A stretch of DNA of 64,000 nucleotides from a plasmid, in the NCBI RefSeq assembly GCF_056712565.1, contig NZ_JBWXXM010000002.1; one strand, given 5' to 3'. Positions within the stretch are counted from its first letter, which is position 1. The number at the start of each line of letters is the position of its first letter. Below, piece by piece: positions 45,001 to 51,000 of the stretch. The position numbers are program-made.

Positions 45001-48000
45001 CATCGCTCAGACCGATGAATTTCCTTTGTTCCTTCGCTATTTCAGGTTGCACTGCCTGGAAAACAGCGAACATGTCAGTTACGAAAGACTGATCTGCTGG
45101 CAGGAAATGATTTCAAAAACCCAGGAAGGCCAGTCCTTGACACAAAACGAACTTGAATATCTTCATGAGATTGTCCGCATCGCCTTTTACAATCACCGGC
45201 TTAACAATGTCAGTATTTCAGATGTTAAAAACCATGACACTGGAAAGAAGAGCGGCAGGGTAGAGTCACAAAATTATTCACTTTTATAAATAACTTGGGC
45301 TTTGCGCATTAAACCCTTGCCGCAGGCGGTGTACCGCATATCCGGCACAGACAGTCAGTTTTTTCTGGCAGCTTAAATTTGACACTGCTTAATATAGTGA
45401 TTCATTAAACAGGTTCAGTATGCTGCCAGAACGTTTTAGTCGTAATGGGCGTCCGTTAGTTTTCAACTAACTGAACGACGACCAGCCTGCCGCCTTCCTC
45501 CTTTGACAGAACAAACTGAGCGTTATTCGTCAGTTCAATTTTTTCCCCAATGGCAATCTGTCGTTTATCCGGTAATGACATAAGCCCATTTATGCCTTCA
45601 TTTACTAACCACCACTGATCGTTATGGAAAACAAAATACCCAACTCGTTTCCTTTGTGCATCGGTTGTGCGCTCATTTGGCGCAATGAGGCGATTCACAT
45701 GCCACGCATAGATTGACTGCCCGCTCCACACCATCAACCGGTGGTCGTCAGGACGATAACTGCCTTCCTTTCGGGATGAATATAAATTTAGGGAAGGTGC
45801 GAACAAGTTCCTGATATGAGATCATCATATTCATCCGGAGCGCATCCCAGAGGGACATCATGAGCCATCAACTCACCTTCGCCGATAGTGAATTCAGCAC
45901 TAAGCGCCGTCAGACCCGAAAAGAGATTTTCCTCTCCCGCATGGAGCAGATTCTGCCATGGCAGAATATGACCGCTGTCATCGAGCCGTTTTATCCCAAG
46001 GCGGGCAATGGCCGACGGCCCTATCCGCTGGAGACCATGCTGCGTATTCACTGCATGCAGCATTGGTACAACCTGAGCGACGGTGCCATGGAAGATGCCC
46101 TGTACGAAATCGCCTCCATGCGCCTGTTTGCCCGATTATCCCTGGATAGCGCCCTGCCGGATCGCACCACTATCATGAATTTCCGCCACCTGCTCGAGCA
46201 GCATCAACTGGCCCGTCAATTGTTCAAGACCATCAATCGCTGGCTGGCCGAAGCAGGCGTCATGATGACCCAAGGCACTTTGGTGGATGCCACCATCATT
46301 GAGGCACCCAGCTCTACCAAGAACAAAGAGCAGCAACGCGATCCGGAGATGCATCAGACCAAGAAAGGCAATCAGTGGCACTTTGGCATGAAGGCCCACA
46401 TTGGTGTCGATGCCAAGAGTGGCCTGACCCACAGCCTGGTCACCACCGCGGCCAACGAGCATGACCTCAATCAGCTGGGTAATCTGCTTCATGGAGAGGA
46501 GCAATTTGTCTCAGCCGATGCCGGCTACCAAGGAGCGCCACAGCGCGAGGAGCTGGCCGAGGTGGATGTGGACTGGCTGATCGCCGAGCGTCCCGGCAAG
46601 GTAAAAACCTTGAAGCAGAATCCGCGCAAGAACAAAACGGCCATCAACATCGAATACATGAAAGCCAGCATCCGTGCCAGGGTGGAGCACCCGTTTCGCA
46701 TCATCAAGCGGCAGTTCGGCTTCGTGAAAGCCAGATACAAGGGGCTGCTGAAAAACGATAACCAACTGGCGATGTTATTCACCCTGGCCAACCTGTTTCG
46801 GGTGGACCAAATGATACGTCAGTGGGAGAGATCTCAGTAAAAACCGGAAATAACGCCAGAAATGGTGGAAAAAATAGCCTAAATAGGCTGATTCGATGTG
46901 TTTGCAGGAAAAAAATTGGCCCAGATCCGCGAAATTTTAATCAGCGAGTCAACTTGGGAAGAAATGACCTGCTTATTCGCACCTTCCTTAGAACCGGTAA
47001 TTTACCCTTGTATGGCGTACCGCAGTAGGGACAAACCGGCTTTGTCTTACCTGAGAAAACGTACCATTTCTGTTCACACGCCTTGTTCTGGCAGGGCTGT
47101 ATCAGATCGACTGTTTTAACCAGGGCACTTTCCCACTCATCGGCGGTCGGGCGTTTATTGGCATCGTGTAAGCCATCAATAAAGGCGCGTTCAAACAAAG
47201 GCGTCAAATAAGGGCCCATGATGGTGTAAGGAATTTTCTCCGGGTCAGCCCAGGGCAGTGAAAAGGAGGATAGCTGACTGACTTTGACTGCATTGCTTTT
47301 GTCTGTCGGATGTTCAATGAAGAGTGCCTTCTCACCCATAGATAAGGTCTCATCACGTACTTCATCCGACATGTCATGTATTTTTCCGCCACGTAGCGGA
47401 TGACGGAAGAACAGATACATGTAGATAAGCACCGACAGCGCATGACGGTCAGTAGAAATGCTTGGCAATACGCGGTTCGGATCCTCTTTGGAAAGATGGC
47501 TGGTTTTCACCACTTCCGGAGCGATAAAATCCGGGGTGCCCACGACGTCGGGAGGATACTTTCCAGGGACAACCAGGCCGTCTACGTCAATGATGCAGGC
47601 ATGTCCCATTTCTGGATCGATAAGCACGTTTTTATAGCTTAGATCGCTGTGACAGAGACCTGCCGCATGCATCCTTCTGACGGCTCTTGTTAGCAGCAGA
47701 CAGACCTTGAGATAGGTAAGCGTATTGCCTCGTTCACGTGGGTCGAGAAATTTATTCTGGTTGCTGGCGCTGGCAAACCATTTGCCTTCCTTTTCACGGC
47801 CTTTTATGCCAAGAAAATCATCGTTTTTAGAGCCGTATTTAAAGAAAAAGTAGCTTTTGTAGGTTGGAACCACGATGCCGATTTTATCCCCATGCTCAAC
47901 AACGTGGGTCGGCCAGCAAAACAGGTCCTTCCAGTATTCACCTCCGGACTGGCCAAAAATGTTTTGCCTGTAGCGTCCGGTGATCATATCAATCCGATCC

Positions 48001-51000
48001 CGGGCCTGCTCGTTCTGCGGTTTATGATAAAAAGCGACGACGTATGATTTATCAGGCGAGAAGTAAACATCCTTCATCGAGCCCGAACCAATTACCTCGT
48101 CAACATACTGGACTGTTTCGCCGTCCTTTGTTTTGCACGTAACAATATTTGCCATATTGATCACCGAAGAAGCGTATCCCTTACCACAACACCGCAATAG
48201 TGCGGTCATCGTGGTTCCCTGTGGAGAAAAAGTTAAGCCAGTCGCCTAACCTCTCAGGCGCAATACTGGCGTCTGTAAGGACAGGGATGAGCTCATCAAG
48301 GAGACGGGTCCATTTTTCGTCACTGCGAAGCCCGTTATCTGTCTCAAACAGAGGGTCTGATACGCCATCTGTCATGAGGATCAAGTGAGATACATCATTC
48401 CATTTACCCACGCTGATGCGGCCGCTAAACGAGGGGTCTGCGATAATGCTCTGGTCAAGAAAGCGGGTTTGTCCTGCGTATTCTCCGCTATCGGGATTTC
48501 CCAGTATCCTGACTTTACCGGAAGGGCTGTATGCACCTATCGCACCATCACCAAGCCAGAATGCAGCCGCAAACAGCTCGTTATCAGTTCGTAGCGCTAC
48601 AGTTGCCAGTAGGGTTGTTGAATAGGATTTCACAGGTTGTTCTGCACAAATGGCTTCGTTCTGGATACTGTTGACCGCGAGCGTAGCTGCCTGTTTAAAA
48701 TGATGAAGCATGGCGTTTATGGTTGCCTGCTGATCGCTCCCTTCCCACGCCGTGATGTGCTGCTTTAGATGGACGCCTTTCAAACCACTGAGCTGATTGA
48801 AAAGGTAATCGCCAGCCGTTTGGACTGCAATCCGGGAGCCTTCCTGGGAATTTACCGCACTACCGGCCCCGTCTGCGACCAGCATGACAGACCATCCTGT
48901 TTCCTGGCAGTGGTTGATATAGAAGTCGTCATCTCTGAAGCTCCCGGCATGCTCATGAGATCGTCCCCGGCGACTGGCGGCAGCAATACGTATGTCACCC
49001 CTGACCAGGCCAGCAGCGTCCAGATGGGACTTAGGGTAGGAAGCGTCTGCTGGTGGCTCTACCACCTTCCACAGGCTTCTCGGATCGGGATTGACTATAA
49101 AAAGCTGTTTTGTTTCGCATTCGTCGTGCGAAGCGCATGACCAGAGTACTGAAAGCTCTATATCGCCGCTTTCGGTGGGTGTACCTGTCAGCAACTTATG
49201 CTCTTTGTCAAAGGTCAGGCCAATGTTCCTGGGAAAGACAACGTCCCTGACAGTAGCCTGCTGGCCCTCATCCAGAACTATAGCAACCGGCGAAGAGAAA
49301 CGTTCGCCTGCGCGGGCGTTGGGAATAACTATTTTAGCTCTCGGGGGAACGGCAGGTGGCACAGCTAATCCGGCCCGCTGCTGGCCTGTCGGTATCTGCC
49401 CGGGTTTTAATACCAGGGAAGACAGGTTTTCGTCTTCCCTCTGTGCTGGTTTATCAAATTCGTAATAAGGCATCAGCTTCCAGAACGGAGGATGAGGTTC
49501 ATTTTCTGGCAGGGGTTGCAGTAATGGTGTATCGGTAGCGTCAATGCCCGGGTTATCAGCATCACTTACGACCGTTTGTTGCTGATCGGAAAGGCTGGAT
49601 GCTGACGAGGGGGCGATCTCTGCGTCGTTATAACCTTCGCTAACCCGCGCAGATAAACCCTGTGCAAGGCTCTCAATCCGCTCTTTAAGCCGCATAATCT
49701 CTTCAGTAAGGGAAGGGTCGTGCGATAGAAGAAAAAGCCGCTCACCTTCTACAGGGTGGCCCAGCTCAGACAGCACTAAGCGGATAATCTTCTCTTCAAG
49801 TAAAACATTTTGCGACATCAACCTCTCCCTCTGTTTACGTCGAAGTTAGTGTTTCCGCCATCATTGCTGAATGACAGACCTGTTTCACACCACGGGCAGA
49901 TCACGTCATCCGGGCCGTCAATGCACAGCAATTTTCCGCATGAGCACAGGGCAAACGCACTGGCATTACCGCAGTGAGGGCAACCCGGTACGCCATGCAG
50001 TTCGCTGGTGTTTACCTGCAAACCGGTAGCGGTGGCATCTGACCATGCAAAATAGTCTTCATCGATGGGATAGCATCCGGCAATATTAAAGCTGTTCAGG
50101 TTCAGGCTGAAATCGAGCCCGGAAATCCTTGCTGGTGGCCGTTCATACTTCATCAGATACGGACGACGGGTCTTGCTGCAACGGCCGGTAAGCGTAACGC
50201 AGTTTTCGTCGTACGCTTTTACTGGCTCGTCCTTGGCCAGCCGGACTATGTATTCAGTCTGGCTGAGCTCAGGTTGTTTGTCGTCTCCGACGCTGCGGCT
50301 GTGCGCCGTAACCGAGGCTGTGATCCATTTGATGAAGCGGGTAAAGTCCCCTTCCTGAGACTCGGTGAACAGCATGACATTCTCTGTCAGTTGCCGCAGG
50401 GTATTCAGGTCCGCTGACGGCCCCAGGCCAACGGCAATGAGATTCACTTTACTCGCGTAGTGATCCTTCCAGCGCTTCACTTCTGCGGTTGTGTCGTCAG
50501 TCGGACGTCCGTCGGTAAGGAGATACACGACGGGTTTCCAGTCGCCTTTAGCCTCATGAGTGGTTTTTCTGACCTGGGTATCAATTTGTACGGTCAGCTC
50601 ACGCAATGCGGCCCCAAGGCTCGTACCGCCGCCAACGGGAAGGCGGGGAGGGTAGAACGAGGCAATTTCGTGAAGAGGTACAATCGTACGGGCTACACCG
50701 GCAAATGCGATTACCGAAACCCAGGCTGTTTCAAGTGCGTGTGGATCCTTTCTTAAATCTCCGATGATCATTTGCAGACCATCAGTCATTTTTTTCAGGT
50801 TTTCACCAATCATGGACTCTGAACAGTCCAGGACAAAAAACACGGGAAGGCGTCTCATAATTTTCCTCGTACGGCTGGTACGGCCAGCAGAAAACGTTGC
50901 TGTACAGAAAGGTGCTGCCCGGAAAGCAGCACCTTTCTGTCTGTCAGAGCACCAGCTGGATTTCTGGTGGAGGAGGGGGAAGGGTATCAGTTCCGTTATT

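Follow-up and report, generated by a model that had tools for sequence, protein, structure and literature searches.

A copy of the insertion sequence ISKpn26 splits the Ser/Thr kinase gene of a TerY-P triad on an IncHI2 plasmid. The window that we analyzed is the whole stretch of 64,000 nucleotides from this plasmid (NCBI RefSeq assembly GCF_056712565.1, contig NZ_JBWXXM010000002.1), and positions are counted from its first letter. We conclude with good confidence that ISKpn26 recently moved by simple transposition into a TTAG in the kinase gene and severed a C-terminal domain with a predicted FHA fold. The switch to which the kinase belongs would then be impaired or deregulated.

The inserted element is a complete ISKpn26

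The element occupies positions 45792-46987 on the plus strand (1196 bp), as bounded by its inverted repeats and the duplicated target site. The left terminal inverted repeat, GGAAGGTGCGAACAAG (16 bp, 45792-45807, plus strand), is matched at 15 of 16 positions by the right one, GGAAGGTGCGAATAAG (46972-46987, minus strand). This 16-bp motif was found only twice in the whole window, at the two ends of the element, with zero matches expected by chance. The single transposase, an intact IS5-family DDE enzyme of 326 aa (45860-46840, plus strand), scored 367 bits against the IS5 family profile NF033581 (cut-off 140, E = 5.6e-110).

The same 4 bp, TTAG, flank the element on the left (45788-45791) and on the right (46988-46991), which fits the YTAR target preference of IS5. 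When the window was compared with pSTM6-275 by BLAST, both flanks aligned at >99.9% identity and the two alignments overlapped by exactly these 4 bp in the reference. It follows that TTAG occurs just once at this position in the plasmid without the insertion.

A preliminary description of this DNA had reported a complete IS5 with a TTAG duplication. The completeness (repeats, 1196 bp) and the duplication stand, whereas the name does not. The element is not IS5 proper, since its entire sequence shares 99.9% identity with the copies labelled "IS5-like element ISKpn26" by PGAP. ISKpn26 belongs to the IS5 group, is very abundant (>5000 plasmid records) and is known, for example, for having inactivated genes by insertion in Klebsiella and other Enterobacterales. 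Compared with known ISKpn26, the copy described here has the same length, 16-bp repeats, one 326-aa transposase and a 4-bp duplication at a YTAR-type site. The element itself shows no difference; it is its position in the IncHI2 TerY-P kinase gene that had no counterpart in the collections we searched.

The two fragments belong to one kinase gene

Removal of the element with one TTAG (1200 bp) joined the fragments into a single open frame that starts with the ATG at 48209 and encodes 517 aa, as the preliminary description had predicted. Among the matches listed, the restored 1554 bp were 100% identical to an uninterrupted single CDS in at least 40 IncHI2 plasmids. In all, 707 plasmid records were at least 99% identical to the restored gene, and the gene was in one piece in 1204 of the 1234 plasmid records that carry it. 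Its intact product is WP_001284313.1, with 499 aa from the annotated start and 517 aa from the upstream ATG. As read from the identical reference gene, the PGAP start is at 48155 (MANIV..., 1500-bp CDS) and not at 48209. Residues are given below in the 499-aa numbering unless stated otherwise.

The insertion cuts the kinase after residue 389 of 499. The 5' fragment (residues 1-389; 46988-48155, minus strand; in-frame ATG upstream at 48209) carries the Hanks-type kinase domain and a Cys4 zinc ribbon. Comparison with the restored ORF showed that it runs into the element for 15 residues, RKVRISRSFLPKLTR, and stops inside the right inverted repeat (46941-46988, minus strand). The truncated ORF spans 46941-48209; in the 517-aa numbering it keeps 407 native residues, loses 110 and gains the 15 encoded by the element. 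The earlier claim that the C-terminus is severed is thus correct, with a loss of 110 residues and not 111. The severed 3' fragment (45456-45791, minus strand) holds residues 390-499 and the stop, and is predicted to form an FHA-fold domain.

We aligned 119 homologues from Gamma- and Betaproteobacteria (65-86% identity). All 119 were 499-509 aa long and reached the last or second-last residue of the query. This shared C-terminus makes the two ORF fragments parts of one gene. The preliminary description had named intact homologues ending near the insertion as the finding that would speak against it, and none of the 119, all of full length, was of this kind. Conservation in the severed part was similar to that of the remaining protein, with a column mean of 0.75 compared with 0.78-0.86 elsewhere.

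The truncated product keeps the kinase domain and the zinc ribbon

Pfam Pkinase (PF00069) matched residues 151-269 (E = 9e-10). A Foldseek search of the PDB returned protein kinases for all of its best 50 matches (E about 1e-8), and the model has a bilobal kinase fold. The catalytic loop HSDLSYKN (residues 169-176; 47628-47651, minus strand) is of the HxDxxxxN type, and its H, S, D, L, S, Y and N were invariant in 54 homologues. In the same 54 sequences the APE motif, GTPDFIAPE at 206-214, was invariant. The position of the Mg-binding DFG motif reads DVD-G (190-193), with D192 and G193 invariant in that set. By predicted fold and by its catalytic-loop and APE motifs, the intact product is a Hanks-type Ser/Thr protein kinase, for which phosphotransfer is predicted.

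Directly C-terminal to the kinase domain lies the zinc ribbon, C355-x4-C360 ... C375-x2-C378 (47022-47093, minus strand). All four Cys were invariant, and the ribbon is kept in the truncated product. Short beta elements are predicted there in the model, and a profile search of PDB sequences gave weak similarity to the zinc-binding segments of COX5B and RING proteins. The cut comes after all of these parts (kinase fold, HSDLSYKN loop and zinc ribbon), in agreement with the earlier statement that the catalytic domain lies upstream of the insertion.

The severed domain has a predicted FHA fold

The full-length model (pTM 0.85) places a beta-strand at residues 385-396, across the cut. A fold search of the predicted structure assigned the C-terminal 110 residues to the FHA beta-sandwich fold. 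On this model the insertion interrupts the first beta-strand of the conserved C-terminal FHA-fold domain, just past the zinc ribbon. The fold search was the sole method that identified the domain, so the FHA assignment is that of a predicted structure. The FHA Pfam profile had no match in the kinase or in any of 40 homologues, an NCBIfam search of the kinase gave no FHA match, and a profile search of PDB sequences gave no FHA signal for the C-terminal domain. Using hhalign with a sequence of the GarA FHA domain, we found no similarity (probability 1.8%). The canonical phosphothreonine-binding GR, SxxH and NG residues could not be placed in the domain. Its own invariant residues are R406, Q413, S414, W418, H419, N427, R437, H444 and N452, and we could not match these to the canonical FHA set.

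FHA domains usually dock onto phosphothreonine peptides, and some FHA-fold domains do not bind phosphopeptides. They occur in the Ser/Thr kinases Rad53 and Chk2, and in GarA, FhaA and EmbR, bacterial partners of Hanks kinases. Compared with these proteins, the plasmid kinase showed no detectable sequence similarity and no identifiable canonical phosphothreonine-binding residues, and its predicted FHA fold comes after a zinc ribbon, at the C-terminus.

The kinase gene ends a TerY-P triad in the ter accessory cluster

The kinase gene is the last of a TerY(vWA)/PP2C/kinase triad, which itself ends the accessory cluster for tellurite resistance (ter) on this IncHI2 plasmid. Directly upstream in the same operon is a PP2C-type Ser/Thr phosphatase of 545 aa (48181-49818, minus strand; PF13672 PP2C_2, E = 1.6e-46). 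It is preceded by a TerY-type protein of 346 aa (49818-50858, minus strand) with a vWA domain and a TerY-C metal-binding domain (Pfam VWA, E = 3e-13; TerY_C, E = 4.5e-53). These matches bear out the PP2C and TerY-vWA partners named earlier. ORFs and the annotation of the identical reference place a second vWA (TerY-like) gene at 50944-51582 and a TerD-family gene in the TerX position at 51582-52223, both on the minus strand. A further vWA gene is annotated in the reference at 52246-52884. The TerD-family genes, terW and the biosynthetic module that tie the triad to the ter locus are known from the annotation of reference plasmids >99.9% identical to the window here.

Downstream of the kinase the next gene (44177-45289, plus strand; ORF and reference annotation) is convergent. 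Since the kinase gene is last in its operon and faces this gene, the insertion is not expected to act in a polar manner on the other ter genes.

The preliminary description had also placed the insertion at a compositional boundary of the ter island. Composition does drift over the last gene of the cluster (0.455 in the C-terminal fragment, 0.484 in the N-terminal fragment and 0.52 in the PP2C gene). The drift is gradual, and the appearance of a sharp boundary is exaggerated by the 53% GC of the element itself; therefore nothing ties the insertion to the boundary.

Distribution of the insertion allele

By megablast of the interrupted region, the insertion allele was absent from the 1234 plasmid records in PLSDB that carry the gene and, likewise by megablast, from 5426 complete E. 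coli genomes. The GTDB representative genomes contained no exact match to a 40-mer over the left junction, and the 404-aa truncated product was absent from a protein collection (gene-position index). An allele found nowhere else in the searched collections fits a recent one-off event.

Two candidates for the same allele were rejected. The E. kobei record has ISEc68 downstream of an intact kinase gene. The C. freundii plasmid pCF_324-2 has ISKpn26 at a different TTAG, and the 5' part of the gene is deleted. A hot spot shared with pCF_324-2 (end of a BLAST segment at 46990) was rejected as well, as the homologue is continuous at that point. Other truncated or deleted alleles of the kinase exist. 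Because these remove catalytic parts, their sequences point to plain loss of function being tolerated.

Comparison with known triads

In the accounts of PMC11090510 and PMC7699616, the TerY-P triad is viewed as a switch that works by phosphorylation, and triads related to it are reported to be anti-phage systems. The triad here has the same vWA TerY, PP2C and zinc-ribbon Ser/Thr kinase as the ter-locus triad of Anantharaman, Iyer and Aravind (2012), as summarized in PMC11090510. Its genes likewise adjoin each other on the same strand, in the neighbourhood of terD-family genes, terW and the biosynthetic ter genes. In contrast to the described triad, the kinase here is truncated past the zinc ribbon. 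The intact IncHI2 kinase has a predicted FHA fold beyond the ribbon, a domain absent from the descriptions cited here, although the 2012 original may have it. An FHA fold in this terminal position may be a new observation for ter-type TerY-P kinases.

The same gene types form a chromosomal triad in E. coli K-12, composed of the kinase YegI, the phosphatase PphC and the vWA protein YegL. Experiments have shown YegI to be an active Hanks-type kinase, and it has the non-canonical DSD for DFG (Rajagopalan and Dworkin, 10.1101/819920, 10.1101/303594); the plasmid kinase has DVD there. The catalytic loop is the canonical HxDxxxxN in the plasmid kinase and VGDxxQxS in YegI. The two kinases aligned weakly (21% identity over 218 aa, E = 3e-5), over the C-lobe and the position of the CPxC zinc ribbon, and no FHA-like region was aligned.

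The TerY-P system of Gao et al. (2020), reported as protective against T7-like phages (PMC7699616, PMC11090510), shares the three-gene logic of vWA protein, phosphatase and kinase as far as these accounts give it. Its kinase is said there to have a C-terminal OB fold in place of the zinc ribbon, whereas the plasmid kinase has the ribbon. PADLOC v2 gave no specific match for the five ter-cluster proteins: the kinase had only generic kinase matches (E >= 1e-5), and the PP2C, vWA and TerD-family proteins had none. Because only generic matches were found, membership in the Gao 2020 defence system is not supported.

Proposed mechanism and alternative explanations

We propose that ISKpn26 transposed into a YTAR-type TTAG inside the kinase gene of the vWA/PP2C/kinase triad. 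The truncated ORF would encode the kinase domain, the zinc ribbon and a 15-residue tail from the element. Given the usual docking of FHA domains to phosphothreonine peptides, loss of the FHA fold should either break the link of the kinase to its phosphorylated partner or to its own autophosphorylated form, or destabilize the protein. The TerY-P switch would be left impaired or deregulated, and the earlier suggestion that its signaling is altered or lost is plausible. Core tellurite resistance (terZABCDE) would be unaffected. In R478, the tellurite (Te), phage (Phi) and colicin (PacB) phenotypes have been mapped to terZ/C/D and terA (Whelan 1995, cited in PMC12054061), so the tellurite, phage and colicin assays proposed in the preliminary description may not report on the kinase gene.

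Could the fragments instead be a shorter natural kinase and an unrelated small ORF, with the element between genes and nothing disrupted? The 3' fragment does form its own 116-aa ORF (45456-45806) with a TTG start, and the C-terminal part has no Pfam match. However, the TTG sits within the inverted repeat of the element, and therefore that start exists only through the insertion. The uninterrupted gene is annotated as one CDS in IncHI2 plasmids, and the full-length model is a single compact protein. On sequence comparison the continuous homologues already refute this reading, to which we give practically no chance. It is also very improbable that a multi-copy element was misplaced during assembly and that the real gene is intact. 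The extreme abundance of ISKpn26 and the lack of any other record with the allele would suit such an artefact, but the element is complete, both repeats are intact, the junctions are exact, and the perfect 4-bp repeat matches a single-copy reference sequence. Exact junctions with a duplication are the signature of real transposition, and we know of no misassembly that creates a target-site duplication fitting the YTAR preference of the family.

The allele might also have changed function rather than lost it. An active kinase with its ribbon, minus an autoinhibitory or targeting FHA domain, could rewire the switch and be selectable, and the FHA fragment could still be made by read-out from the element. 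The cut lies exactly at a domain boundary in the model, the catalytic core and the ribbon stay in frame with few extra residues, and the TTG-start ORF covers the FHA fragment. Opposite-strand ORFs of the element (46136-46504 and 46511-46765, minus strand) point towards that fragment, and other truncated or deleted kinase alleles exist. Against this, a promoter scan found no sigma-70-like site in 45200-47100, and the sole AGGA resembling a Shine-Dalgarno sequence is 2 nt away from the TTG, too short a spacing. The allele is a single known instance with no recurrence at the site, and the other disrupted alleles lose catalytic parts, which points to tolerated loss of function. We consider this reading unlikely. 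A small chance remains, in our estimate, for a natural domain-deletion allele, in which a competent kinase with its ribbon would be freed from an unannotated FHA module that tethers or autoinhibits it, leaving the TerY-P switch deregulated and not dead. If true, a deregulated switch on a widespread resistance plasmid could affect plasmid-borne phage defence or metal stress.

Our preferred reading remains simple transposition, and the event is apparently an ordinary, one-off gene disruption of a known kind by a common mobile element. Its importance hardly goes beyond the annotation of this strain. We recommend a single pseudogene entry (kinase::ISKpn26) for the locus in place of a short kinase and a separate hypothetical protein. 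In light of the predicted fold, the present product names of the kinase ("helix-hairpin-helix"/HhH domain, "InaA LPS kinase") are uninformative. For this widespread plasmid kinase, the FHA fold predicted for the conserved C-terminal 110 residues suggests that phosphopeptides are docked as part of the kinase/PP2C/vWA switch. The truncated allele offers a mutant, already made by nature, in which the role of the C-terminal domain of the TerY-P kinase can be probed.

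The inserted element and its target site

The Hanks-type kinase gene of the TerY-P triad (45456–48209, minus strand) is split by a complete insertion sequence of 1196 bp at 45792–46987. Each end of the IS is a 16-bp inverted repeat (GGAAGGTGCGAACAAG; GGAAGGTGCGAATAAG); the 64-kb window holds just these 2 matches, with 0 expected by chance. The intact transposase ORF (326 aa; 45860–46840, plus strand) scored 367 bits against NF033581, the NCBIfam IS5-family model, which has a cut-off of 140 bits. The preliminary description had called this element a complete IS5 with a TTAG duplication. 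Completeness and duplication held, but IS5 proper did not: because the element is 99.9% identical over its full length to RefSeq-annotated copies of "IS5-like element ISKpn26", we assign it by sequence to ISKpn26, a close IS5 relative. Antisense to the transposase (46136–46765, minus strand), two ORFs (122 and 84 aa) point at the severed kinase fragment. They occupy the position of ins5B and ins5C of IS5.

TTAG is found on either side of the IS, at 45788–45791 and 46988–46991. When the window was compared with pSTM6-275, an uninterrupted IncHI2 reference, both flanks aligned at >99.9% identity and the two alignments shared exactly 4 bp (TTAG) in pSTM6-275. This TTAG pair is a textbook case of target-site duplication, at the YTAR type of target that IS5 prefers.

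Restoration of the reading frame

Deletion of the IS plus one TTAG (1200 bp) fused the minus-strand ORFs 46941–48209 and 45456–45806 into one frame of 517 aa, as had been proposed. The restored 1554 bp were 100% identical to one intact CDS in at least 40 IncHI2 plasmids among the matches listed, whose hosts were Salmonella, E. coli, Enterobacter and Klebsiella. The restored gene was found in 707 records at ≥99% identity, and the gene is uninterrupted in 1204 of 1234 records. PGAP places the start of WP_001284313.1 at 48155, 18 codons inside the 517-aa frame, which gives the 499-aa protein used for numbering here.

A protein search yielded 119 homologues that could be used, from Gamma- and Betaproteobacteria, with 65–86% identity and lengths of 499–509 aa. 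Intact homologues stopping near the insertion point were the result that the preliminary description had named as speaking against it. Instead, all 119 extend to the final residue of the restored protein or to the one before it, and the severed C-terminal part is about as conserved among them as the remaining protein. With every homologue full length, the two fragments belong to a single gene. The 116-aa "downstream ORF" owes its TTG start to the insertion alone, since this codon falls within the IS inverted repeat.

Domain architecture and the truncated product

Pfam detected only a partial protein-kinase domain in the kinase (residues 151–269). An AlphaFold model from 54 homologues (mean pLDDT 80, pTM 0.85) showed a full bilobal kinase fold, and its top 50 PDB matches were all protein kinases (50/50). 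The HSDLSYKN catalytic loop and the GTPDFIAPE motif are invariant in the 54 homologues. DVD stands in place of DFG; YegI, an active kinase of E. coli, has the comparable DSD. The kinase domain is followed by a zinc ribbon whose four cysteines (C355, C360, C375 and C378) are invariant.

For residues 390–499, the model supports an FHA fold. This domain is kept in every homologue and is packed into the confident single-chain model. Canonical phosphothreonine-binding residues could not be located in it, and an hhalign comparison with a GarA FHA sequence came out negative; the fold is thus supported, but phosphothreonine binding by the predicted domain is something we only infer. PGAP has used two names for the intact kinase in different annotation rounds, "lipopolysaccharide kinase InaA family protein" and "helix-hairpin-helix domain-containing protein". 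Both disagree with the predicted domains (Hanks kinase, zinc ribbon, FHA fold), and Pfam gave no HhH signal in the restored protein.

The IS is inserted after residue 389, eleven residues past the last zinc-ribbon cysteine and, in the model, four residues into the first strand (385–396) of the FHA-fold domain. Of the native residues, 389 remain in the truncated ORF (407 from the upstream ATG); the IS supplies a 15-residue tail, RKVRISRSFLPKLTR, and a stop within the right inverted repeat. As first described, the catalytic domain lies upstream of the insertion, and so does the zinc ribbon. The C-terminal loss also stood, but comparison of the ORFs gives 110 lost residues and not 111.

Genomic context

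The window is IncHI2 plasmid backbone; 20000–44999 carries trh transfer genes and is 100% identical to many IncHI2 plasmids. Upstream of the kinase, on the minus strand, are genes for a PP2C_2 phosphatase (E = 1.6e-46) and a protein with vWA and TerY-C domains (E = 4.5e-53). Also there are a second and a third vWA gene with one of the TerD family between them, terW, and the ter biosynthetic genes. These domain matches bear out the proposed PP2C and TerY-vWA partners, and the vWA, PP2C and kinase genes form the triad known in ter loci as TerY-P (Anantharaman 2012, as summarised in PMC11090510). The PP2C_2 domain spans only residues 284–529 of the 545-aa phosphatase (48181–49818, minus strand), and the N-terminal ∼280 residues had no Pfam or NCBIfam match.

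The operon ends with the kinase gene, whose downstream neighbour (44177–45289, plus strand) is convergent, so a polar effect of the insertion is not expected. The product of the convergent gene, WP_001232449.1 (361/370 aa), has a Cys-rich CxCxCPxC segment near its N-terminus; no NCBIfam family was found for it.

The GC content is 0.52 in the PP2C gene, 0.484 in the 5′ kinase fragment and 0.455 in the 3′ fragment. The IS had been placed at a compositional boundary of the ter island; the GC shift is real, but it is gradual and is sharpened by the IS itself (0.534), and nothing ties the insertion to it. Genes for a tyrosine recombinase (42288–43472, minus strand) and an Hha/YmoA-family nucleoid-associated regulator (43628–43846, plus strand) separate the ter cluster from the IncHI2 backbone genes. 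This pair (42288–43846) sits near the onset of the GC rise.

Frequency of the insertion and other disrupted alleles

The insertion allele was absent from PLSDB (1234 gene-carrying records) and from 5426 complete E. coli genomes. Its junction 40-mer was absent from GTDB representative genomes, and the truncated product from the protein-position index. Its flanks hardly differ from those of uninterrupted plasmids. By all appearances the insertion occurred recently, in a single plasmid lineage.

In C. freundii pCF_324-2 (CP078021.1, IncHI1B; 5654–7888 of comparison locus L003), a kinase homologue of 88–95% identity is cut by ISKpn26 at another TTAG, equivalent to window 47690–47693, within the catalytic domain. 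On its other side this IS borders unrelated DNA and lacks a target duplication, so the 5′ part of the kinase gene has been lost; this IS-associated loss is independent. A 411-aa allele in a Logan assembly (P0048, 36.6-kb contig) is 99% identical to the IncHI2 kinase and has an in-frame internal deletion of ∼107 residues; the catalytic loop, DVD and APE motif are gone, and the zinc ribbon and FHA-fold domain are kept. Since these two alleles are also damaged, they suggest that kinase loss is tolerated.

In E. kobei pCTX-M_SCLZS19 (NZ_CP110879.1; 3001–3981 of comparison locus L002), a different IS5-like element, ISEc68, follows directly on an intact kinase gene and takes the place of the convergent hypothetical gene. 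IS5-family insertions have thus hit the 3′ edge of the ter cluster more than once.

Predicted consequence of the insertion

Loss of the FHA-fold module should weaken docking, either to a phosphorylated partner or to the kinase once autophosphorylated, or make the protein less stable. This would leave the kinase/PP2C/vWA switch disabled or deregulated. A gain of function, through an active kinase freed of its tether and perhaps a separately expressed FHA fragment, is unlikely and has no positive support: the promoter scan found no outward promoter, the sole Shine-Dalgarno-like sequence is too near the TTG, and the allele was seen only once.

YegI/PphC/YegL of E. coli K-12 is the closest characterised relative, a distant one with 21% identity over the C-lobe and ribbon. 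PADLOC models did not support membership in the TerY-P defence family of Gao 2020. The R478 tellurite, phage-inhibition and colicin phenotypes map to terZ, terC, terD and terA (Whelan 1995, as cited in PMC12054061), and these classical phenotypes may well be unchanged by the insertion.

What the preliminary description reported, correctly, is an ordinary disruption by a known IS of a gene from a known triad. The model-based assignment of an FHA fold to the conserved C-terminal domain is the sole by-product that may be new, and mildly so.
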